From the NCBI GenBank assembly GCA_051294375.1, contig CM119271.1, forward strand, positions 7,616,162 to 7,680,161: a DNA stretch of 64,000 bases. The letters are read 5' to 3'. The DNA comes from Paraspadella gotoi. Taxonomy: Eukaryota; Animalia; Chaetognatha. Below are positions 1,224-50,164 of this stretch, piece after piece; positions within the stretch are counted from its first letter, which is position 1; every line of letters begins with the position of its first letter. Position numbers and translations under genes: made by a program. Below the pieces are notes generated by a model that was not told the DNA's origin, ran no database searches, and worked only from the letters and a program-made list of their open reading frames with translations.

Positions 1224-4200
1224 ATGAATTTATCTAGGTAACGGAACTAATTAATTTCTTTTACTCTCGCAAGCTTTGGCTTCATTTTAGGTCTATAACT
1301 TAACAATTTCCTTTTCCTGCAGCGACCCGTCTCCCTCGGAGGATTTGGTTTGGGCCACGGCCTATTGCGGGCCGGTGGTTCCTCTGTGGAATGCGAGCTC
1401 CACGATGAGGTCGTCTTCGCCCAACCTGACTGACTGTTTTCAGAGAGCCGTTCTGGTCCCGATTCCTTGCCTCTTCTTTTTCCTCGTCCTTCCTTTCCAC
1501 GTGGTCGTCATCCGACGCAAAAATCGAGGCTACATACCCGTCGCTCTTCTCAACGCATTTAAAATGGTCGCCTTGGCATTGATGCTGCTGATGATACTGA
1601 TGGATTTTGGCATCTTGTTGTATCTACAGTACGGGCTGGATCTGTTTTTTCCTCCCGATCACTTCGCGACACCGGCGTATCTTTATCTCACGTTGTGCTT
1701 CGCGGGTGAGTCGGTGCATGGGTTATTTGGGCGATTTGATGACAACAACGACAACAACAACCTTAACGACTCTTGAACTTACCTAAATCGTGACCTACGA
1801 CTTAAGTTCAAAAAGTTAACCGACCACTTGATTCGTTTTGACTCTCATTGTTAATTGGGTTATGAGATTTACTAAAAGCAAGTTTTGTCTTTAATTAAAA
1901 AAAAATAATTATAAGCATTTATTAAAAATATCGAATTGCTCTAATTCTTAGGATGGTTGATGTACTACGAAAGACAGAAAGGATGTCAATCATCGGGATG
2001 TCTCTGGCTTTTCTGGTTCCTTCTCACTCTCGTCCTCACCGTTGCCTTTCGCTCGTACATCTTAGAACCGCAAATCGAACCGCAATACGGCAAACTCAGA
2101 TCTGTCATCTTCTTCATCTTCTTCGGCGCGGTCGTCATCGAATTCTTCCTTCATTGCTTCGCCGAAGCTACGCCTCCATCGCTCTTATCCGATCACGCCA
2201 ATCCCTGTCCCGAATCTTCTTCCTCTTTTCTTTCCCGCATAACCTTTAACTGGTTCTTCAAGATGGCCTGCCGGGGTTTCCGTAAGCCGCTTCAGGCGCA
2301 GGACATTTGGGATTTGGATCCCTACGACAGGGCCTTCAATCTCGACCAAATCTTCCGGAAAAAGTGGGAAAAGTTCGGCCATTACTGGGAAGTCCTTGCA
2401 AAGGATAGAGTCAGACTGAAAAATCTCGCCAAGTCCGAAACTCCGGAGAAGGTCGCGTTTATAAAAAAATCTCCCACAGAGAATCACGAGGAAGAATCTA
2501 AGACGAAAAATGCCGGTGGGGATGATGATGACGGCGTCGTAGTAGTCGTTCGCAACGGCCAAACCCGTGACGACGAGAACGAAACCGGCAACACCAATGA
2601 AAACGCCAAGCGCCGTCCTTTTTTCAGTCGCCGTGCCAAGGCCTCCGATAAAATCGACGATAAAAAAGAGGCCAAGGAGAAGAACCAATCCTCCTTGTGG
2701 AGCGCGCCCAGAGGTGGAAAACGCTATTTGCTCAATACTCTGTTGATCGCGTTTGGAAAGACATTTCTCTTCGCCGTGTTTTTCAAATTAATTCACGACT
2801 TGTTGCTTTTCGTCCCTCCCTACTTCTTAAACAAGCTCATCGCCTACATACGTGCCGTTCACGACGGTAAAGTGGGAACCTCGAAAAGTGAGGATTACCA
2901 ATTTTGGCACGGTTACTTTTACGCCGCCCTACTATACGTGGCGGCCATCGTGCAGACGATCATGTTGCATCAATATTTTCACCGTTGCATCTTGACGGGG
3001 ATGTGGCTTCGCTCATCCGTTATCGCTGCCATCTATCGCAAGAGTCTCAATCTAAGTTCTTTTTCCCGCCAATCGACGACCGTCGGAGAAATCGTCAATC
3101 TCATGGCCGTCGACGCGCAGAAGTTCATGGAAATCTGCACCTATCTAAACATGGTCTGGTCTGCTCCGCTGCAGATCGCCATAGGCATTTACTTGCTCTG
3201 GGGATTGCTGGGTCCTTCGACCTTGGCGGGCATCGGCGTTATGATCCTCCTCATGCCAATCAACGGCGCCTTGGCAAACTTCTACAAAGTTTATCAAATC
3301 GAACAGATGAAGTTGAAAGATGAAAGAATAAAAATGGTAAACGAGGTTCTTAACGGAATAAAGGTGCTAAAGCTCTACGGTTGGGAACCTTCCTTTCTCA
3401 GGAAAATGTCCGATATTCGAAAAAGGGAAGTCGTGTACATTCGGAAAATGGCCATTCTAAATGCCGTCTCTAGTTTGTTATGGACGTGCGCGCCAAATTT
3501 TATTTCCCTGGCCACATTCTACACTTACGTCTTGACCAATTCTAGCAAAGATCTCGATGCACAAAAAGCCTTTGTTTCCATGTCGTATTTTAACATTCTG
3601 CGTTTCCCGATGAGCGTTTTGCCGATGATGATTTCTAGTCTGGTACAGGCATACGTCTCCTTAAAGCGCATCAATAACTTTTTGCGCTTGGAAGAGTTGG
3701 ATCGGAACAACGTGGAACCGACGACGTCCGTCAACGATTCCGTGAAGATCGAGGGGGGTGCCTTCCAATGGGGCGTCGACGCTCCCATCATTCTTGACAA
3801 CGTCGATATCTCGATCAATCGGGGCTCTCTCGTCGCCGTCGTTGGCCCCGTCGGTTGCGGAAAATCTTCTCTCGTCTCTGCCATTTTAGGTAACATGCAC
3901 AAGACGCGTGGTAGAGTTACGCGCAGCTCTTCCATCGCCTTTGTCCCGCAGCAACCTTGGATCCAGAACGACACGCTTGAGTCCAACGTCCTTTTTCACG
4001 CTGCCCGTGTCGATGATCAATACGCAAAGGTCCTCTGGGCATGCGCACTCGAACCCGACCTTGCCATGTTGCCCAACGGCGACCAGACGGAGATAGGCGA
4101 GAAGGGCATCAATTTGTCAGGCGGGCAAAAGCAGCGAATCTCTCTCGCTCGCGCAGTCTACGCCGACCGAGAGGTCTATCTGTTGGACGACCCGCTCTCC

Positions 4201-6541
4201 GCCGTTGATAGCCACGTCGGCAAACACATTTTCGATCACGTGATCGGCCCGGAGGGTCTATTGTCGGGAAAGACGCGCCTTCTGGTCACTCACTCGATCG
4301 CGTTTCTGGATCGCGTTGATTACATTTACGTCGTCAACGAGGGCGTCATCACGGAGCGGGGATCCTTTGTCGAACTCATGGCCGCCGACGGAAAATTCAT
4401 GGAGTTCATAAATCTCCATTCTAAGAAGGCGGGAGAAGAAGATGACAAAGTCGTTGATTCGGAAGAGAAGGCCTTGTCCTCTCTGCAAATGAACCTGTTG
4501 ACGCCGAAGATGAGCAATGACGCGCTCTCGGTTGACGGTTCTAAAACGTCGGTACCGTCTGCCGTATTTACTACTAACGCCGAACCCGACGTAGAAACGG
4601 GCAAGAAAAGTCCCGAGGCGCAGCCGTTGTCGCCGAAACAGGCAAAATCCCCAGCGGTCAAGCTGATCCAGGAAGAAGGAGCGGAGATCGGAAACGTCAA
4701 GATGAGCGTCGTCAAGATGTACGTCTTAGCCGTGGGCACTGTCTTCGCCGTCTTCGGCAGCTTGTTTTATCTCATTCAGCAAGCCTTCGACGTTGGCATC
4801 AGCTTCTGGTTAGCCGATTGGGCCAACGAGAACGAACGATTGAAGTTGGATCCCAACGCGACGGCGACGATTGATCTCCACGAGAGACTCATCGTTTATA
4901 CGTCTTTGACCGTCATAATGGGAATCGTCGTCGTCAGCGGATCCTTCATGGTGGCTATCGGGAACATTCGCGCGAGTCGCAAGCTCCACGACGATCTCGC
5001 CTACAACATACTTCGTTCGCCCATGTCGTTTTTCGACACGGTTCCTCAGGGTCGCATCCTCAATCGTTTTTCGAAAGACATCGACACCATAGACTCCACG
5101 ATCCCTTTCTCAATCCGCGGTTTTCTCGGCACTTTTGTCCGCGTTCTCGGCACAATCATCATCGTCTGCATCAGCACCCCATTTTTTCTCGCCGTCTGTC
5201 CCTTCCTCTTTCTATTTTACTTCTTCGCCCAACGGTTCTACATCCCTGCGTCGAGGCAGTTAAAGCGATTGGAGAGCGTCACGCGATCGCCCATCTACTC
5301 TCATTTCGGCGAGTCAATCACGGGCGTCACTACCATCCGCGCCTACAATCGCCAGGACGAGTTTATCGACAAGATTTTTGAACTGGTCGACTCCAATGTT
5401 GCCTGCTACTTTCCCAACATGGTTTCCAACCGGTGGCTGGCCATTCGCCTCGAATTCGTTGGCAACTCGATCATGTTTTTCGCCGCTCTCTTTGCCGTCG
5501 TCAAGGCGAAGACGATAGAATCGGGCACGGCCGGCCTCGCCATCTCTGCCGCTATGCAGATCACTCAGACTCTAAACTGGATGGTGAGAATGACATCCGA
5601 GTTAGAAAATAACATAGTTAGCGTAGAAAGGATCAAGGAATACACGGAAACTCCCACCGAGGCGCCATGGAAAATCAAAGGGAAAAAGCCGCCCGACGAA
5701 TGGCCGCGCCTCGGCAACGTTGAGTTTTTACGCTTGGATCTTCGATACCGGGAAGGCTTGGAGCTTGTCCTCAAGGGCGTCAACATCTCCGTCAAGGACG
5801 GCGAGAAGGTCGGCATCGTTGGCCGGACAGGAGCCGGGAAATCTTCACTCACCGTGGCGCTTTTCCGCCTGGTAGAGGCGGCCGCCGGCGAAATTGACAT
5901 CGACTCTGTCGACATCGCCAAGATCGGACTCCACGACCTGAGGACCAAGCTTAGCATCATCCCGCAGGACCCCGTTCTCTTTTCGGGATCATTGAGGATG
6001 AATCTCGATCCGTTCGACGCCTACTCGGACGACGCCGTCTGGGAGGCGCTTGAGCACGCTCATCTCAAGGACTACGTCAAGGGTTTGGAAGAAGGACTGG
6101 GGCACATTTGCAGCGAAGGAGGAGAGAATCTCTCGGTAGGCCAACGTCAGTTAGTCTGCCTGGCGCGGGCGCTTCTCAGAAAATCGAAAATTCTCGTTTT
6201 GGACGAGGCCACGGCCGCCGTCGACCTGGAGACCGATCGCCTTATACAGGTGACGTTCGTTTCGATTGAAAATTTTGGAGAGAGTTATGTTTTTTTTGTC
6301 GATTGTAAATTCATTTTAATTTTTTATTGCTCCGCTCTTTACTATTTAGGCAACAGTACGATCTCAATTCTCCGCCAGCACGATCCTCACCATCGCTCAT
6401 CGTCTCAACACCGTCATGGATTACGACAAGATCCTCGTCATGGACGCCGGTCTCGTCGCTCAATACGATTCGCCACAAAACTTATTGAAAAATCAAAAGG
6501 GGATCTTCTACGGGATGGCGAAGGACGCTCACCTTGTTTAA
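1224..6541 (+). CDS. ABCC1: Multidrug resistance-associated protein 1-like ABC transporter (ABCC subfamily with TMD0); exons 1224-1237, 1323-1705, 1952-6249, 6350-6541
   Basis: Motifs include PNLTDCFQ (TMD0), [18 protein letters not shown] (L0), Walker [10 protein letters not shown] and GRTGAGKSS, signature LSGGQKQR and LSVGQRQL, and Walker B YLLDD and [12 protein letters not shown] introns join the exons in frame, and the last exon reads TILTIAHRL. Confidence 0.93.
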
Positions 6542-6825
6542 TAAAAAAAAAATACTTTGATTTAGTTTAATTTCGTGTTCGTTATTCGGGTCAAGAGGCA
6601 GCCGTTTTATTGGGTTTTCATATGCTGTGTATATGAATTCGTTTTTCCGTGTGCTATTTATTAATTTTTTTTTTCGACCACAAAAACTATCTACAAATCG
6701 AGCTATCTTTTGGAGACCAAAAATTTTGGTTTCGGGTATTTTTTTTCGTTTTTTAAATTGACAAACTCTAAATTGACTTGATCTCCAGATAAAAAAAAGT
6801 GTTTCCCGCTTTCTAAATAGTCGCG

Positions 6826-36468: not shown

Positions 36469-40526
<4,058 letters not shown>

Positions 40527-41002: not shown

Positions 41003-41158
41003 GTAATTTTTTTTTATCGCATTGTTTAATACCAAAAAAAAAAGATTAACTCAAATTCGAGATTTTCGTTAAAACAAAAAGGGGGAAACAAAATTTGAAA
41101 ACGTTTTGGTGTTAGGAAAAGAATTCATGATTTTATGAGATGATCAAGAGTCGACAAG

Positions 41159-44088
41159 ATGCCCCGTGATAGAAGTTTATCGCCTTATTCCAAGAAACAA
41201 CGGCGACTGTCTCGCGACGCCGACTATTTCAAAGCCAGGTTTGTGAATGACGCAACTAGCATATTTCGATGTGACTTGATTGAAATTAAATCAATAACGA
41301 TATAAACTCTCAGAGGCGATCGCCGTCGAGACGACGACCACTATTATCGCGACGAGCGTGACCATTATTATCGCGAGGCGGCCGAGTGGCGCGGCGAGGA
41401 CCGCTTCGACGAAAGATACCGCGAAGACGATCGTCACCGCGGGAATCAAAATGGCCGCGGCCACCGATCCCGCTCGCCCTCCTCCAGAAAACGGCGGTCG
41501 GCGAAACGCTCGGCGGAATATGACTCTGACTCGGACGAGCGGTCGTCGCGGTCGAGGAAAGAAAGGAAGAGATCGTCGAGTCCGAGGAGAAAGGAGAAGA
41601 GGCAATCTTTGAGGTGAGGCTTTTTTTCAAGAGTTGGATAAAACAAAGTAAAAAAACAAAGTATAAAAAAGTGCGAAGCAAAAAAAACATAGAACAAAGC
41701 AATAATGGGAGCAATGACAGGGCTAGACCAAACTGAGAGAATAATTTTTCGCACGCATTGGTGGTGGTTGTTATCGTCGACGTCTTGGTTGTTGTTGCTA
41801 CATCTTTTCAATTGGCATTCCAGCCCGGCTTCTCGCCAATTTAGCGCCATGCTGGCGGCAGCGGCCTCGAACGTTCAGAAGCCTCAGGTCATCACGAAGA
41901 CGTTGACCGAATACGTTGGACCACGAATCGCCGCCATGGAGGAGACGGTGCAGATCGCCAACGTCACCTCGCAGCAGGAGACGAAGAAAGAGGAGGCGCG
42001 CGAGGAGAAGACCAAAAAGTCTGCGTCGCCGCCGCTGCACAGCTCCAAGTCTTCGACGCCTTCGATCCAGGAATCCTCGATGCTGCCGGGAATGCCTATT
42101 TCGCAGCAGCCTCTGGGTAAGAAAAATTGGCAGACAAGTTGTTTTTTATTTTCCGATGACGTATTTTCGAATTTTTTTTATTTCTCAGATCCAAGCCTTA
42201 CGGATTTCACAATGGACGCTGACTCATCGGACTTTGATTTTCCCCATGCGGACGTTGCTCCTCCGGGAACTGTCCCGCTTCAAGCTGTCGAGGTCTCCAG
42301 CATCGAAGATGCACCCCAAGCCATAGAGACTGTACCCGCCGTCAATCCCGCTGGCGTTAAAAAAGAGCACACACCCGGTCCACCTCCTATGCCGACTTTG
42401 CCCGCCACCTTAGAGACTACAGACGTTTCTTTACCCGTCCAGTTTACCCAGCCGACCCCTGCGGACCCTCCGCCGATGCAACCACCGCCAATTCAGCCTG
42501 CGTTTCTAAAGGCTGCATCCCCGTCGTCGCCGTCTATCACGGGGTCAACGCAATATTCGCAGTATTCTCAACCGCCAGTAACGTACGCGGCTCCCCAGAA
42601 GCCAATGCCGTCGAAACGCGATCGTCGTTCTAGCTCCACCGGCCCACGTCCGGTCTCGACGGCCCCGCCTCCCCCTCCAGCGGGCGCCATCGACGTGGCT
42701 GACATTAAAACCGCTTCGCCGCTTGCGCGCGTCATCCGGCCCGGCTCCATTCCAGAGGCGGCGCTTAAAAAGACGTTTACGAGGGGACCGGGGCCAGTGG
42801 CGCTACCTCCAGGAAAGAATCCCGTTCAGGTGAGTTACTGCCGACTGTTCATCCGTTATAACTGCCTGCTCTTGTGCACTTTTGTTTATTGCAAGATTTG
42901 CTGTGTCAAGGAAACGTTTTAGCCTTTTTAGTTTGCATCCTACTTTTAGTTTTTGAACGAGAAAATTCCCGGGTTACCCTACGAATGCCTTGGTCAGTTT
43001 GGACACGTCCATCAACCCCTTTTCCGCATGGTGGTGGTCTTTAACGGAAAGGTCTACCAGGGGGAAGGCTCGTCGAAGAAGTCGGCCAAACTCGACGCCG
43101 CCAACAACGCTTGTAACGATTGGTTTAAGGTCTGTCGCCAGACTGTCTCTAGTTTTAGTTTCATGAAATTATGTCTAAAAATTTACTCTTTTAGGAAAAT
43201 CGTGAGAGGTTGGAATCCAGAGGAGTGGAGGTAAAGGAGGAAAACAAAGCTTATGAGTCGGGCATCTACGGCTTCGTGAGATCGGAGGCCGAAGGAGGTC
43301 CGGCCGTAAACGCGGGTAAGGCATCGTAGGAAGCGATGACTTACTTCCCACTCTATCATCAACTAGGACCACTATCTTTTGCTTCTTCCACAATACAGCT
43401 CCGCTGCACAAGAATCCCGTTAATATACTGCACGAGCTGAGGGGAAACGTCATCTACAAGCCAGTATCTGAAACCGGGCCAAAATACAATAAAACATATG
43501 TTATTGGTAGGATAAGTTTGATTAATGTAATTGTTAATTCTTGAGAAAATTATGGGTTTTTATTTTACGGCGGCTATTCCTCTGTTATTTCATTTTTATC
43601 CTAGCCTGCGTCGTTGATGGGCAAGAGTTCGAAGGGCGGGGCAAAGATCGAAAGATCGCCAAGACTCGAGCGGCTGAGGCGGCGCTGACGACTTTGTTCG
43701 AGATGGACTTTACCAATCATCACGTCGACTCCATTCCCTACATTCCCATCGTGACTGATGATCAACAGGTTGCACTTTCCGCACTGTGATAATATGCACG
43801 TTTTGTGTATTGTTTTTCGTCAGACACAATATATCCAGTTTTTTGTCGTCACATTCATTTTATTCAACATTTTCCCAGGCTCTCGCCGATCACCTCCTCG
43901 GTTTGGTCTACGACAAATTTTTTCAACTGACCGAGGACGGACCCACCAGCATCCGCAAGGTCACGGCCGCTATTCTTATGACCTCGGAAGAGAAGGAACT
44001 TATCGGCGAGGAGAAACCCGTCACGGCCAAGACGTTTTTTCCGGAACCAGAGCCGGAACTGGAAGAGGAAGAGGAATGGGAAGGCGGC

Positions 44089-44120
<32 letters not shown>

Positions 44121-46533
44121 GGAGGAGGAAGCAGAGCAGGAAGAGGAGGGAGAAGAATGGGTAGAGGTATGACTATCCTAAATAGTAGATAAATTTCGTT
44201 TTACAAATTTACATTTTTTTAAAAACTATTTTTTCCCATGAAGGACCCAAACGACCAGTTTAACGAAGGCTACCAATGGGAGGGCGGATTCGGGGGTCAA
44301 TTTCCACCCAACCACGGATTAGGGCGAGGAATGGGTCAGCCTATGTATCGCCCGCGCCCGCCTTTTCCCGCTGGCATGGGCATGGGGCCAATGGGACCTC
44401 GGGGGCCTCACGGTCCAGGAGGATTTCCCCCTCGTGGACCCTTCCCATATCGAGGAAGGGGCATGATGCAACCGCCCCATAATCCGTATGGACGCTACTC
44501 CGTCCCTCCACGACCCAGTATGAGACTAGGACCGCCAGGCCCTCCGAGACCTCCAGTCTTCATGGGCATGCGTCCTCCTCGTCACCCGCGTATGCCCTTC
44601 ATGCCCCGTGGACTGCCCCCTCGACCAGTGCGCGGTTTCCCCAGGGGGCCTTTCCCGCCTCCCTTCCCGGGGGCGGGACCGAGGATGATGAGGCCGCCCT
44701 TTCCACCCATGATGCCGGGATTTTTCCGGCCGCCCAAACCCAAGCCGGTGAAGCGGCCGCCCAAGGTCGACTCAACCCTTAAACTACCTTCGTCCACGCC
44801 TGATCTCGAGAGGTGTATTTATGCCAAAGTGGTTTCCATAGGCACGGGCACCAAGTGCATTGGCGGTGAATTCATTTCCGGTAAGTCTTTTGACAGATTA
44901 GTGTAATACAAATTATATCAAATTTGTCTTTCGTAGTTATAAATTAAACTTAGTTTTTTATTATTTTTTATTATTATTAATTAGTTGAGACTCTAATTTT
45001 TTTGCGTAAATCAAGTCGAACTAAAATAAATTTTTTTATTCCAAAGACTGTTTCAAAACCCATTCATCGCAGATTCCGGTTTGGTGGTCAATGATTCGCA
45101 CGCTGAGATCGTGGCTCGCCGCGGCTTCATACGGTTCTGCTACGACCAGCTGCAACTGCTGCTGTCAGATAAGGACGAAGTCAGAAAATCCTCTATTTTT
45201 AAGATCAAAGGTAAACGATTGAAGAATTTGGTTCGAAGTCACTAGCGCGTCATTTCGTCCTTTATTCATTTAGGTAACGCAGGAAAGGGTGAGGCGATGT
45301 TCTCTCTAAAGCAAGGCATCAAATTTCACCTCTACATCTCATCGGCGCCCTGCGGTGACGGACGGATGTTTAATTTGCGAGAGAATTATCAAGATGACGG
45401 ATACGCGAAGATCGACGAACATCCCGAGAAGGATTCCAGGGGACTTCTCCGGTGCGAGTCTTATTTTCGACTTCAGTGAAATTATTTTTATCAACCTACC
45501 TTTTTCCTCTCAACCCCTCCTTACCCGACGCAGCTGCAAAGTAGAGCACGCTGAAGGCACTCTCCCCGTCACGCTGACGCAGGCGCCCGATGGAATCCAG
45601 ACTTGGGACGGGGTCATTCAGGGCGAACGCCTTTTGACGATGAGTTGTTCCGACAAAGTCGCTCGCTGGAACGTCCTCGGAATACAGGGTTTGTCAAAAG
45701 AGTTCTGGATTTAAAAGTTGGATGGCATTCGGCAGACAAATTCGTTTTCCTTAGGCGCTTTGCTCAGCCATTTCATCCCGCCCATTTATTTGGAATCCAT
45801 TATTTTGGGATCTCTGTTTCACGGGGACCATTTGAGTCGAGCCGTTTACGGCCGACTTGAAGTGGTGGACGACCTCAAGATCGAACTGCCCGAGGGTAAA
45901 TTTATTTTTATGCCAATTACCTTATTCCGACTGCTTTTGTTTTCGTTTTTGTTCGCAGCAATCTAATATAATTTTAAATATAATTATCTCAATAGCGTAT
46001 CGTCCGCATAAACCTCTTTTGTGCTGCAAGAGCAAGCCAGAAGCCAAGATAGTCGGAGTCACACCCAAGTATGGCGTAAATTGGACTACCGGTGATGAAG
46101 ATGTTGAAATCTTAGGTTTGTAGTAGTACAATCGTTTGACTTTCTATTTCTAGTCTCATTCCATTTAAATAATTTTGCGACTTAATTCCCAGATATGCGA
46201 AGCGGAAAAGTGGAGGTTACGAAAAAACCGTCTCGGTTATGCAAGTTCAATCTTTACAAGCGTTGGCTCGAGCTGAGCGCAAAAATGGAGATGCTGTACG
46301 CGCGTTCGACGGCCGAGGGAAAGTTGTACTCGGAAGTCAAGGTCGGTCGCTTCGACGCTGGAGTTTCTCTTCCTCACATTTTTCACGTTTCACCATTTCG
46401 TTGTTTATAGGGAGAAGCAAAGTCTTATCAGTCGGCGAAAGATACTTTTAAAAAGGCGTTCAGAAACATCGGATCCGGAAACTGGGTGAAAAAACCCATG
46501 GAACAAGACATGTTCGAAATCTCGACGGAATAA
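41159..46533 (+). CDS. ADARB1: Double-stranded RNA adenosine deaminase, ADAR2-like (2 dsRBDs + deaminase), with an RS/RD-rich N-terminus and a large insertion
   Basis: dsRBDs KNPVQFLNE...[10 protein letters not shown] and KNPVNILHE...[10 protein letters not shown]. Deaminase motifs [63 protein letters not shown] and [13 protein letters not shown]. Confidence 0.9.
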
Positions 46534-47268
46534 TCCACGTCTCTCTCAAATTTAAATAATCGCTCTCTCTCTCTTTCTCTCTTATCGCCGTTATTTCTCT
46601 TTCTTTTTAATTTACTCGTTCTACATTGCTCACCCTCTTAGGGTTTCGTTTTTTTTAGTAACGTGATAGGCATGCCGATTTTTCAATGCCCCAATTGCTG
46701 CGCTTGTTTCGATTAATTTTAGTTTTTAGATTTAACCAGGGATTAGTTTTCTTTAACATATTTTTTGTAGCTCTCATATGACTTACGAGAAATAGTGTAG
46801 AGCTTGATCCGTGACGTTCCAAACGCATGTTTTTTCTTACCAAACGTGTTTTCGAATTATTACGAGGTATGAGTGCTAGCGTCTAACGGTATTTTTTTTT
46901 TTTAATTTTTACTCTTTAGTTGATGTTTAGTCCAAAATTGCAGTTTTCTTACAGTTTGTGTACCGTCTTCAATGTACTCGTGGGAATATGGGCTGGTGGT
47001 TTCTATATGAATCTATAATGTAGCGTTTGGGTCAGTTTATTCTATCGTACCGCTCTTTCTCATAAGTTAATCGTTCAAGAGAGAATTCAAGCCCGTGTAT
47101 TCCATTTTTCGTTTTCTGACTTCACCTTCAGATAATCTTCCTCCTCGAACATTGACGTAAATGAACTCGCCGCCGCGTGACCAAAGACTTATCATTTCCT
47201 ATCTCGAAATTTTTTTATTAATTTCAAGTTTCCACCCGGGTGCACCCCCTTAAAAATTATTTAAAAAA

Positions 47269-50164
47269 ATGCTCAATTCCGTTTCGAGCGGGTCCTCGAA
47301 GGGCGAGGCCAAGCACGATGCTTCCTCCGAAACGTGGGCGCCGTCGGATCGCGTGCGGCCCAACGCCTACGTTTCCTCCATGGCCGATTATCGCGCCATG
47401 CATCGAGAGAGCGTGAACCAACCGGAGAAGTTCTGGTCGCGCGTCGCCGCCGACTTTCACTGGCATCAAGAACCCACTCTTGGTGACGGGTCGTTTTTGA
47501 AGTACAACTTTGACTACACCAAGGGTCCCATCGTCATCAAGTGGATGGAAGGCGCCGTCACGAACATTTGCTACAACGCGATAGACAGGCATATAAGTGA
47601 GCGAAGGCATTATGAAGATTCTGTCACTTTCATAATGAACTAAATTCAGTTTTTAGTCTCGTTTATTATTGGCTTTGGGACTTCATAATCGATACGATTG
47701 GAAACTGGCCAGTGACCAATTAACTTTCTCCCTTCCCTTTTTTTAGACAAAGGTCTCGGCGAAAAAGTGGCCTTTTACTGGGAGGGTAACGACCCTAACG
47801 ACACGGAGCGCGTCACATTCTCGGAGTTGAAGCGTCGAGTCTGCCGTCTGGCCAACGCGCTCAAGGCCCACGGGGTGGGGCGCGGGGACCGGGTTGCCGT
47901 CTACATGCCGATGATCGTTCAATTGCCCGTCGCGCTGCTTGCCTGCGCAAGAATCGGCGCCGTTCATTCTGGTTCGAAAAAGAAGTTGAACACGAGTTGT
48001 TATTGCGAGTTTAGTTGCGAGAATATATATCTAAAGTGGATGTATTACCACCCTTTTCAGTCGTTTTCGGCGGATATTCGGCCAAAGCTTTGGCCACGCG
48101 CATCATCGACGGCGGATGCAAGGCCGTCTTGACTGCCGACGGCAGCTTCCGCGGCACGAAGCTCATCGAGTTGAAGACTTTGGTCGACCAGGCGCTGGAA
48201 ATCTGCTCGACGGGATCGCTTGGGACTGTCTATAAAGACGTCACCAGCTGCATCGTTGTCAAGCACTTGGGCGGCAAGGACGACGACGCCGATGCGTGTG
48301 AGGAAGAATGCCCTCCGGCCAAGAGGCCCTATCGGTAACGGTGGGTGAGCGAGATCAATGCTGTGACCTTTTTGATATCGTCCTGTTTATCTAGATAATG
48401 TTGTATAGCTTGCCTTTCAAATATTAAGAGACCTTCTCCTTCGTCACTTCTCAATCATCAATTTCAGTAAAGTCTGCTGCAAAATGACGCCCGGGCGGGA
48501 CCACTGGTGGCACGATGTCGTCGACTCCTGCGATGACGACTGCAAAGTGGAGTGGGTGGACGCGGAGACTCCACTATTCATGCTCTATACCAGCGGCAGC
48601 ACCGGCAAGCCCAAGGGTGTCCTGCACACCACCGGAGGATACATGCTGTACGCGGCGACGACGTTCAAATACGTCTTTGACTATCACAAGGAAGACGTTT
48701 ACTTTTGCACGGCAGACGTCGGTTGGATCACCGGTAAGGTCCTTTTTTTTATTACTACTTTTTTATCATTCTTCCTTTTTTCTTTTCATTTCTTTTTCCC
48801 TTCCCAGGCCATTCCTACCTCGTCTACGGCCCCCTCCTCAACGGCGCCACCGGCATCGTCTTCGAGGGCGTCCCGTTCTATCCCGACGCCGGACGATTCT
48901 GGGAAATCTGCGCCAAGTACCGGGTGTCTCAGTTTTACACGGCGCCCACGGCCATTCGCGCCCTCATGAAATTCGGCGATGACTGGGTAAAGAAGCACGA
49001 TCTGAGCGACCTCAAGGTGCTCGGGTCGGTGGGAGAGCCGATCAATCCGGAGGCCTGGCTCTGGTACCACCGAGTCGTCGGTCGCGAACGATGCTCAATA
49101 GTCGACACTTTTTGGCAGACGGAGACAGGAGGCCACGTTTTAACGCCGCTGCCGGGTTAGAATCGGATTTTTTGTTTGTTTTTTTAATTGCTTTTCGACG
49201 CGGTTAGTGACGAACGCCTCTTTCCAGGCGCCACGCCTCTCAAGCCCGGCTCGGCCACTTTTCCCTTCTTCGGCGTCATTCCGGCGATTCTCGACGAATC
49301 CGGAACCGAGATCACCGGCGTCGGCGAAGGCTATTTAGTCTTCCGGCAGCCTTGGCCGGGAATCATGAGAACCGTTCACGGGAACCACGAGAGATTCGAA
49401 ACGACCTACTTTAAAAAGTTTAAGGGATTTTACTGCACGGGCGACGGAGCCAGGAGGGACAAGGACGGGTTAGTAGTTTGTTTGAACGATAAAAGAACAT
49501 AACGATAGATTAGAACATATTTAAATGTATTTCGAATCGTAATTTATATTCAAATGTCAGTCGTGACCCGAAGCAAACTTTACTTATCCAAATATTCTAA
49601 TCCTCATCGTTTTGTCCTCAGCTACATGTGGGTGACCGGTCGCATCGACGACATGATGAACTGTTCCGGTCACCTCATGTCCACCGCGGAGATGGAATCG
49701 GCCCTGATTGAACACCCGGCCGTGGCCGAGTCGGCGGTGGTGTCCCGCCCCCATCCCGTCAAGGGAGAATGCGCCTACGCCTTCGTCACCCTCAAGGAGG
49801 GCCGCGAGTTTAATGAGAAGCTCGTCAACGAGTTGAAGCAGAAGGTGCGCACAAAGATCGCTCCCTTCGCTCAGCCCGACGTCATCCAGAACGCCCCGTC
49901 GCTGCCCAAAACGAGATCGGGGAAGATCATGCGGAGGGTGCTTAGAAAGGTAAGGGAAGCAATTGAGTTTAATGGTTGATTTAACTTAAATTACGAGAGA
50001 AATAAAAAAAAAAATTGGGTCAATCCAGACATTTTTATTTTTCATCAATCCAATCGCTTCTCGCTTAGGTCGCCTTGGGAGAAAGAGACGATCTCGGCGA
50101 CATCAGCACCATGGCGGACGAATCGGTCATCGATCTCCTCTTCGAACTGAGACCGGAATGCTAA
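47269..50164 (+). CDS. ACSS2: Acetyl-CoA synthetase, cytosolic type, multi-exon
   Basis: [60 protein letters not shown] and [12 protein letters not shown], plus a PPAKRP insert like cytosolic ACSS2. Confidence 0.93.

Follow-up and report, generated by a model that had tools for sequence, protein, structure and literature searches.

The 64-kb window analyzed here (64,000 nucleotides of Paraspadella gotoi contig CM119271.1, forward strand) contains a single ADAR locus, and the deaminase domain of its product carries an insert of 254 amino acids (aa; residues 665-918, window positions 43984-44822) between the first and second strands. The insert is real and conserved in a small clade, and it is predicted to serve RNA-dependent binding or clustering and not to disable the enzyme. 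The gene model has 17 coding exons, with boundaries corrected from RNA joints, and gives an open frame of 1271 aa that consists of an Arg/Asp/Ser-rich N-terminus, a Pro-rich linker, two domains that bind double-stranded RNA (dsRBDs), and the deaminase domain. The initial sequence-only reading of the window had proposed an insertion of about 250 aa in the deaminase domain, which agrees with the length found here and with the presence of an insert at the same site in a relative, P0124.

The insert is divided between two exons. Its exon 9 part comprises 61 acidic aa with a net charge of −32 and a longest Glu run of 14, while the exon 10 block of 164 aa is rich in Pro (30%), Gly (18%), Arg (13%), Met (10%), and Phe (9%), has a net charge of +17, and is followed by a 29-aa tail. 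The conserved strand-2 segment (44823-44858) shares its exon with the Pro-rich part, as the sequence-only reading had stated. Coordinates of all features are listed in the table below.

Table. Features of the ADAR2-like gene in the window
Feature	Position	Strand	Basis
ADAR2-like gene	41159..46533	+	Open exon model; 15/16 introns correspond to listed GT..AG joints in RNA contigs, 1 further joint unlisted
Mixed-charge N-terminus rich in Arg (26%), Asp (13%), and Ser (15%), net +16 (aa 1-126)	41159..41613	+	Composition
dsRBD 1, exons 4-5	42815..43126	+	Pfam dsrm E 1.4e-12 on exon 5; 59/65 identical to P0124
dsRBD 2, exons 7-8	43410..43702	+	P0124 counterpart matches ADAR2 dsRBD2; 50/66 identical to P0124
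Deaminase first helix and first strand	43879..43983	+	Strand-1 profile 24.7 bits (native mean 28.6); aa 626-664 33/39 identical to P0124
Acidic half of the insert, in which a Glu-rich tract (GAA/GAG repeat 44061-44157) follows a conserved anchor of 15 aa	43984..44166	+	11/15 anchor residues identical to P0124; no conservation of the Glu run
77-nt phase-0 intron within insert	44167..44243	+	RNA joint
164-aa part of the insert, with an aromatic/Gly switch followed by the Pro/Gly/Arg/Met block	44244..44735	+	Single RNA contig, 0 differences
Insert, conserved C-terminal anchor, 29 aa	44736..44822	+	18/29 identical to P0124; 18/29 to P0128
Deaminase second strand, T375/K376 equivalents	44823..44880	+	Exon model and residue comparison with primate ADAR2
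HAE, with equivalents of H394 (zinc ligand) and E396 (catalytic Glu)	45099..45107	+	Exon model and residue comparison
SAPCG: zinc ligand, C451 equivalent	45342..45356	+	Exon model and residue comparison
Base-flipping loop EHAEGT (S486H, G487A; E488, G489 kept)	45544..45561	+	Residue comparison
SCSDK, with equivalents of C516 (zinc ligand) and K519 (IP6 residue)	45643..45657	+	Exon model and residue comparison

The insert in RNA contigs

RNA evidence was taken from the Logan contigs of one public run (X1), whose RNA status was guessed (62% of sampled words) and is not on record; contigs of two other runs, X2 and X3, gave no match to the window. No differences from the window were seen in the X1 contigs. 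Across the ADAR gene these contigs support 15 listed GT..AG joints and 1 unlisted joint, the 77-nt intron within the insert being among them. The sequence-only reading had placed this intron at 44168-44243; its start is at 44167, one position earlier. The joint of this intron has 27 placed letters on its short side, which is below the 31-letter bar, with 43 more letters falling within a skipped repeat. One X1 contig covers exon 9 at 43876-44039, and a second one extends from 44138 over the 77-nt intron and all of exon 10 (44242-44879, 0 differences) into exon 11. The interval between them (44040-44137) was skipped as a repeat in contig mapping, which leaves the Glu tract without one contig that is shown to span it.

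The sequence-only reading had also considered that transcripts might splice the insert out using cryptic sites. No joints that skip the insert were found among the X1 contigs, which represent one run as contigs only, so that minor isoforms could escape. That the insert is mostly removed by cryptic splicing, or results from an error of assembly or annotation, appears very improbable: both of its halves are retained in RNA contigs, the whole insert lies in the single open reading frame (ORF) of P0124, and its end is present in P0128 and P0003. What speaks for such an explanation is the unbridged Glu repeat, together with an in-frame cryptic acceptor at 44744, the use of which would drop the Pro-rich block. 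It scores −0.4, close to the lowest of the 16 genuine acceptors, which range from −0.5 to 13.5.

The insert is also not a chance ORF, since exon 10 has no stops in frame 0 (8 and 4 in the other frames), GC content is raised (0.54-0.63 in the insert vs 0.33 in introns), and relatives carry the same insert. As for its location, aligners often put the canonical strand 1 on the C-terminal anchor, and three further alignments did likewise. According to a profile built from 87 strand-1 segments, the N-terminal segment scores 24.7 bits and the C-terminal anchor −8.7 bits; the anchor was therefore rejected as the true strand 1, and the insert truly lies between strands 1 and 2.

The 164-aa Pro/Gly/Arg/Met block has no Pfam, PDB-sequence, or Atlas family match, and no PDB chain is matched even at E 10. 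AlphaFold was run on P0124 as a stand-in. The first run gave a mean predicted local distance difference test (pLDDT) value of 58, with nearly all of the insert below 50, from an alignment that misplaced strand 1 of the relatives; the second run, based on a 9-row alignment, gave a mean pLDDT of 34.

Family placement, relatives, and rarity of the long loop

Pfam reports dsrm on window exon 5, and two dsrm domains plus A_deamin (E 9e-101) on P0124, which corresponds to the ADAR layout. The zinc and catalytic signature of ADARs, HxE-X~55-PC-X~65-C (PMC11334849), is present in the window protein, with HAE at aa 947-949, PCG at 1009-1011, and Cys at 1081. The best solved-structure match of P0124 is ADAR2 (E 3e-123 vs 2e-75 for ADAR1), and the window protein carries GTKC rather than the ADAR1 GNRC-type motif. 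No Z-alpha match was detected in P0124, P0007, or 5 window exon pieces (exons 1 and 3 left out). In the ADAR2 5′ binding loop R455, R477, and R481 are kept, while N473E and R474K are changed. We accordingly class the window protein as ADAR2-like and avoid calling it a typical ADAR2.

The insert clade comprises 6 rows with support 100; in the 54-row tree its stem measures 0.47 and its crown branches are short. This quick tree, made from chosen rows with Shimodaira-Hasegawa-like approximate likelihood ratio (SH-aLRT) supports only, places the clade on the ADAR2 side of a branch with support 100, outside the core ADAR2 group (87). In the 82-row tree it joins ADAR1-type rows at 90, those rows being labelled by motif and not by name. 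Both trees make the short-loop proteins P0006, P0007, and P0043 its sisters (99 and 98 in the 54-row and 82-row trees, respectively). The window protein has its Arg/Asp/Ser N-terminus and a short downstream TEY-x-GP motif in common with the short-loop proteins P0007, P0131, and P0132, and these features were not seen in the named ADAR2s compared; a Pfam scan of exon 2, which encodes this region in the window, returned no match. P0278, P0279, P0280, and P0282 (JGI, Logan) make up a third well-supported ADAR2 clade with a 13-15-aa loop and SGEG, and the N-terminus of P0279 is rich in Pro, Gly, Met, and Tyr. The P0278-P0282 proteins were considered as possible conventional paralogues and rejected, as the tree sets them apart in a clade of their own without a supported link.

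A protein search with exon 13 returned three clusters at 88-96% identity. P0124 (1082 aa, from a 3667-nt contig) has an insert of 324 aa at the site found in the window, all of it within a single ORF. P0128 and P0003 start partway through a Pro/Met/Arg tail whose end is the shared C-terminal anchor. Taken with the window, there are at least 3 insert-bearing sequences (window, P0124, and P0128/P0003), with domain identity of 83-89%. The genomic-looking members P0121-P0123 and P0125 break off at intron positions of the window, so P0124 probably derives from spliced RNA. The genomic fragments P0123 and P0125 break off within the strand-1/strand-2 loop; because the short-loop P0130 breaks off there too, the sequences suggest that the insert has grown on both sides of an older intron.

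Comparison of the two full inserts indicates which properties are shared. The domain after the insert is identical at 291 of 350 positions between the window and P0124, while the insert core aligns poorly, and the longest Glu run is 14 in the window and 2 in P0124. The block order, however, is common to both: an acidic part, an aromatic/Gly part, and an Arg/Pro part. The basic block has a net charge of +25 in each (R:K 23:5 and 26:6), and each insert has 5 PPR motifs. Sequence charge decoration (SCD) equals −21.4 for the window insert (shuffled 0.8 ± 0.7) and −8.7 for that of P0124 (shuffled −1.0 ± 0.6), with 0 of 1000 shuffles as low in either case. GMRPP and MMRPP occur in the window insert; MRPP-type motifs are missing from P0124, which is RG- and His-rich instead. 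No PPxY was found in the insert.

Loop length was surveyed in 375 proteins, a redundant set in which vertebrates, molluscs, and arthropods are over-represented, and 328 of them were measurable. The strand-1/strand-2 loop spans 6-38 aa in 325 of the 328, compared with 256 aa for the window and 326 aa for P0124 by the same measure. Hence, the insert is not widespread in known ADARs, which the sequence-only reading had left as a possibility. The remaining long loop, 108 aa in the ADAR3-like model P0189, is a probable gene-model error as read by eye. As for the 47 unmeasured proteins, 17 were read by eye and have loops of at most ~50 aa (P0269, ~50), and the other 30, insert-clade fragments among them, have one side missing or too weak a match.

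Wider searches gave no further examples. A HMMER search of 1.84 billion representatives revealed no additional insert-bearing protein among the best 150, and in a metagenome scan the insert clade accounts for 0 of 19 loci (15 with the conventional SGEG loop, 4 without that motif shown). A region search with residues 165-420 of P0124 gave no scored match among 1558 candidates and is treated as uninformative. The Pfam A_deamin match on P0124 begins only after the insert (residue 738), so that in surveys by domain the insert would pass for a linker and be overlooked. No account of such an insert was found in the searched excerpts of the ADAR literature, including PMC5558901, PMC11120146, and PMC9989829, most subscription papers being outside the search.

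Catalytic residues and possible role of the insert

The window protein is identical to primate ADAR2 (P0133) at 5 of 5 zinc and catalytic positions, at T375, K376, R455, E488, G489, and T490, and in the TWDG dimerization helix (501-504). The inositol hexakisphosphate (IP6) pocket is identical at 15 of 17 positions; the differing S531A and E689K also occur in conventional invertebrate ADAR2s. H394, E396, C451, C516, T375, K376, R455, E488, G489, R481, and R510 are kept in the window protein and three relatives. The intact HAE, PCG, and SCSDK motifs and the altered flipping loop HAEGT, all reported by the sequence-only reading, were recovered at 45099, 45348, and 45643, with EHAEGT at 45544.

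Changes relative to P0133 are R348I, N473E, R474K, K475D, S486H, G487A, S495A, and K594V. Thus, the Gly-Glu-Gly (GEG) loop reads Ala-Glu-Gly, and Ala at position 487 is found in 8 of 340 matched proteins, all from the insert clade. This does not exclude the protein from the ADAR family, given that the active Caenorhabditis elegans ADR-2 also departs from GEG. In a mutational scan of human ADAR2 (PMC8809894), G487A (0.58/0.86 of wild type), S486H (0.77/0.80), and R348I (0.80/1.56) are tolerated, and N473E (0.47/0.31), K475D (0.34/0.60), and K594V (0.38/0.62) are weakened. Judging by the residues kept, the protein is likely to have some editing activity.

The explanation that we favour, with a probability of roughly 0.4, is that the protein is probably an active ADAR2-like editor with weakened RNA contacts, whose loop is predicted to be disordered, self-neutralizing in the manner of G3BP, and opened by RNA. 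The insert would form a closed loop, its two ends adjacent on the hairpin of strands 1 and 2 and at a distance from the active site. Without RNA, the acidic half would bind the Arg-rich half, as do the acidic and RG regions of G3BP, where autoinhibition is relieved by RNA (PMC7181197). RNA bound by the dsRBDs would outcompete this pairing and free about 25 Arg and many aromatic residues for contacts with RNA and proteins. The freed loop, aided by the N-terminal Arg/Asp/Ser region, may then gather the enzyme on nuclear RNA and offset N473E, K475D, and K594V. Arg/Asp mixed-charge domains are reported to target speckles (bioRxiv 10.1101/771592), and condensates to raise editing by ADR-2-ADBP-1 (PMC11879458). 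Self-binding relieved by RNA would arguably be the simplest function of conserved blocks of opposite charge. Also in favour are the retention of the insert in RNA contigs and in the ORF of P0124, its conserved anchors, the kept zinc, catalytic, IP6, and TWDG residues, and the high mutability of the loop positions 359-365 in human ADAR2.

Several points weigh against this explanation. The charge-block pattern rests on two full inserts (n = 2) with net charges of −11 in the window and +3 in P0124, and repeat slippage is able to produce blocky tracts of low complexity. Where the loop lies is deduced from contact residues: because those that contact RNA stand at the beginning of strand 1 and at the far end of strand 2, the turn is expected to face away from the active site. 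As for activity, GEG is described as strictly conserved in ADARs in a review (PMC11334849), and G274S, at the position of G487, is loss-of-function-like in C. elegans ADR-2 (PMC11879458). The scan values refer to single mutants in the human enzyme with a replicate R2 of 0.69, and the combined effect could be much worse. Finally, the short-loop sisters also carry N473E and have a deaminase core net charge of −1 to 0 without the insert, so weakened contacts do not require it.

Among the other explanations, the Pro/Gly/Arg/Met block, which we presume to resemble the tails of SmB and U1C, may be a docking site for WW, GYF, or Tudor splicing proteins that tethers an active ADAR to nascent RNA, with the acidic block as a spacer. 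The shared PPR motifs, GMRPP and MMRPP of the window protein, and the RS/RD-rich N-terminal region fit such a role, and PGM motifs are reported to bind Tudor domains, with CARM1 methylating SmB, U1C, and SAP49 (PMC5859524). The absence of PPxY, of MRP motifs in P0124, and of any PDB chain match speaks against docking, which also leaves the conserved acid-then-base order unexplained; we therefore regard it as unlikely. WW binding, one of the roles put forward in the sequence-only reading, keeps the PPR motifs in its favour and loses the support of PPxY and of conserved MRPP-type motifs. Alternatively, the insert may be a tolerated expansion at a permissive surface loop, in which slippage of repeats or extension of exons lengthened the sequence to either side of the old intron and selection acted only on frame, solubility, and anchors. 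The loop tolerates mutation better than the rest of the hairpin (mutability of 0.42-0.89 at 359-365 in the human ADAR2 scan vs 0.04-0.21 in the strand cores 351-357 and 368-376; PMC8809894), and it reaches 20-38 aa in several other ADARs and ~50 aa in P0269. Insert length and sequence vary (254 vs 324 aa) against the well-conserved rest of the domain, the Glu tract is a GAA repeat, and P0123, P0125, and P0130 appear to break off in the loop as at a phase-0 intron. Against expansion without function stand the features common to relatives, namely the order of the blocks, the basic block of +25, the aromatic switch, and both anchors, as well as the retention of the insert in at least three sequences with domain identity of 83-89%, in a genome whose introns here are only 63-210 nt long; we give it a low probability.

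A weak or non-editing regulator, similar to ADAR3 or C. elegans ADR-1, would use the acidic tract as an RNA mimic that covers the basic RNA-binding face. Seven changes in RNA contacts and the flipping loop (R348I, N473E, R474K, K475D, S486H, G487A, and K594V) are in line with it, three of them cutting human ADAR2 to between a third and a half, as is the stem branch of 0.47 from the short-loop kin, which fits a changed role after duplication. Moreover, ADAR3 is inactive yet keeps its IP6 residues (PMC11120146), and a 250-aa loop could reach the active site. The zinc, catalytic, and listed contact residues, however, are kept in the window protein and three relatives, unlike in the inactive squid ADAR/D-like protein (PMC10278661), the Glu run is not conserved, and no co-occurring paralogue is shown, which makes a regulator quite doubtful. 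The RNA mimic suggested for the poly-Glu tract by the sequence-only reading is thus weakened: P0124 retains a diffuse acidic block, but none of its Glu runs exceeds 2, and the Arg-rich half of the insert itself would be a nearer partner.

The favoured explanation, a self-neutralizing loop opened by RNA, can be extended to an RNA-sensing switch, in which the editor stays compact and quiet until it meets RNA and then enters splicing-linked condensates, with the rewired flipping and 5′ loops changing the adenosines that are edited. We consider this extension improbable. It would also make the strand-1/strand-2 turn a natural site that takes more than 250 residues in ADAR2 editors. The insert points to this turn as a candidate internal fusion site for engineered editors. 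A catalytic core kept together with 250-330 disordered residues and Ala in the GEG loop would also allow a with/without test of condensate or charge-switch control of editing.

Gene surroundings and known systems

The window comes from a compact genome. The neighbours of the ADAR gene are what we take, by recognition of their translations, to be a LARS2-like gene upstream and an ACSS2-like gene that starts near 47270. One X1 contig of the ADAR mRNA starts with 29 nt (40390-40419) from the last coding exon of the LARS2-like gene, joined from GT at 40420 to AG at 41147-41148, just before the ADAR start and out of frame with it. This joint, seen in one contig, from 40390-40419 to 41149, is a read-through transcript from the LARS2-like gene. 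Another X1 contig, with a depth of 46, covers the gap between the LARS2-like gene and ADAR, and its joint runs back from 40830 to 40600 at a local short repeat. On the other side, a 4946-nt X1 contig that carries the 3′ half of ADAR covers 46409-47200 and extends ~2.5 kb past 47200 toward the ACSS2-like gene. Together, the upstream joint and the 3′ extension hint at read-through or polycistronic transcription, a contig that spans two genes not being proof of one transcript. Farther away, an ORF of ~1540 aa at 1945-6570, presumably MRP1/ABCC-like by recognition, is almost intronless amid an intron-rich region.

Among known systems, human and other primate ADAR2 (ADARB1; PDB 1zy7, 6vff; P0133) shares two dsRBDs, the deaminase domain, and 52.6% domain identity with the window protein. 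It differs in the loop (~9 vs 254 aa), in agreement with the few residues that the sequence-only reading gave for ADAR2, and in GEG instead of AEG, while the window protein adds a long Arg/Asp/Ser-rich and Pro-rich N-terminus. The closest short-loop kin (P0006, P0007, and P0043) share with it the dsRBD linker motif, a likely loop intron, and the Arg/Asp/Ser-rich N-terminus (P0007), but have a 14-aa loop, intact GEG, and 57-58% domain identity. A natural insertion in the ADAR2 deaminase domain is known from ADAR2L, where a 40-aa Alu exon (10 aa in rodents) is located in the 5′ binding loop and not in the strand-1/strand-2 loop (PMC9479739).

Squid ADAR1 has a large lineage-specific disordered domain, proposed to tune RNA binding or phase partitioning; in contrast to the window insert, it is serine-rich and basic, N-terminal, and outside the catalytic domain, and belongs to ADAR1 (PMC10278661). 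Inactive ADAR-like proteins such as ADAD and squid ADAR/D-like (PMC10278661) are marked by the loss of zinc ligands or of the catalytic Glu, all of which are kept here. C. elegans ADR-2-ADBP-1 is, like the window protein, a divergent ADAR with an altered flipping loop, but it relies on a separate partner protein, is changed at 488 (Met) and not at 487, and has no such insert described in the excerpts of PMC11879458. The comparison with G3BP1/2, which combine acidic and Arg-rich disordered blocks opened by RNA, concerns the predicted way of working and not homology: the blocks of G3BP flank an RRM (PMC7181197), whereas here both lie within one loop of an enzyme.

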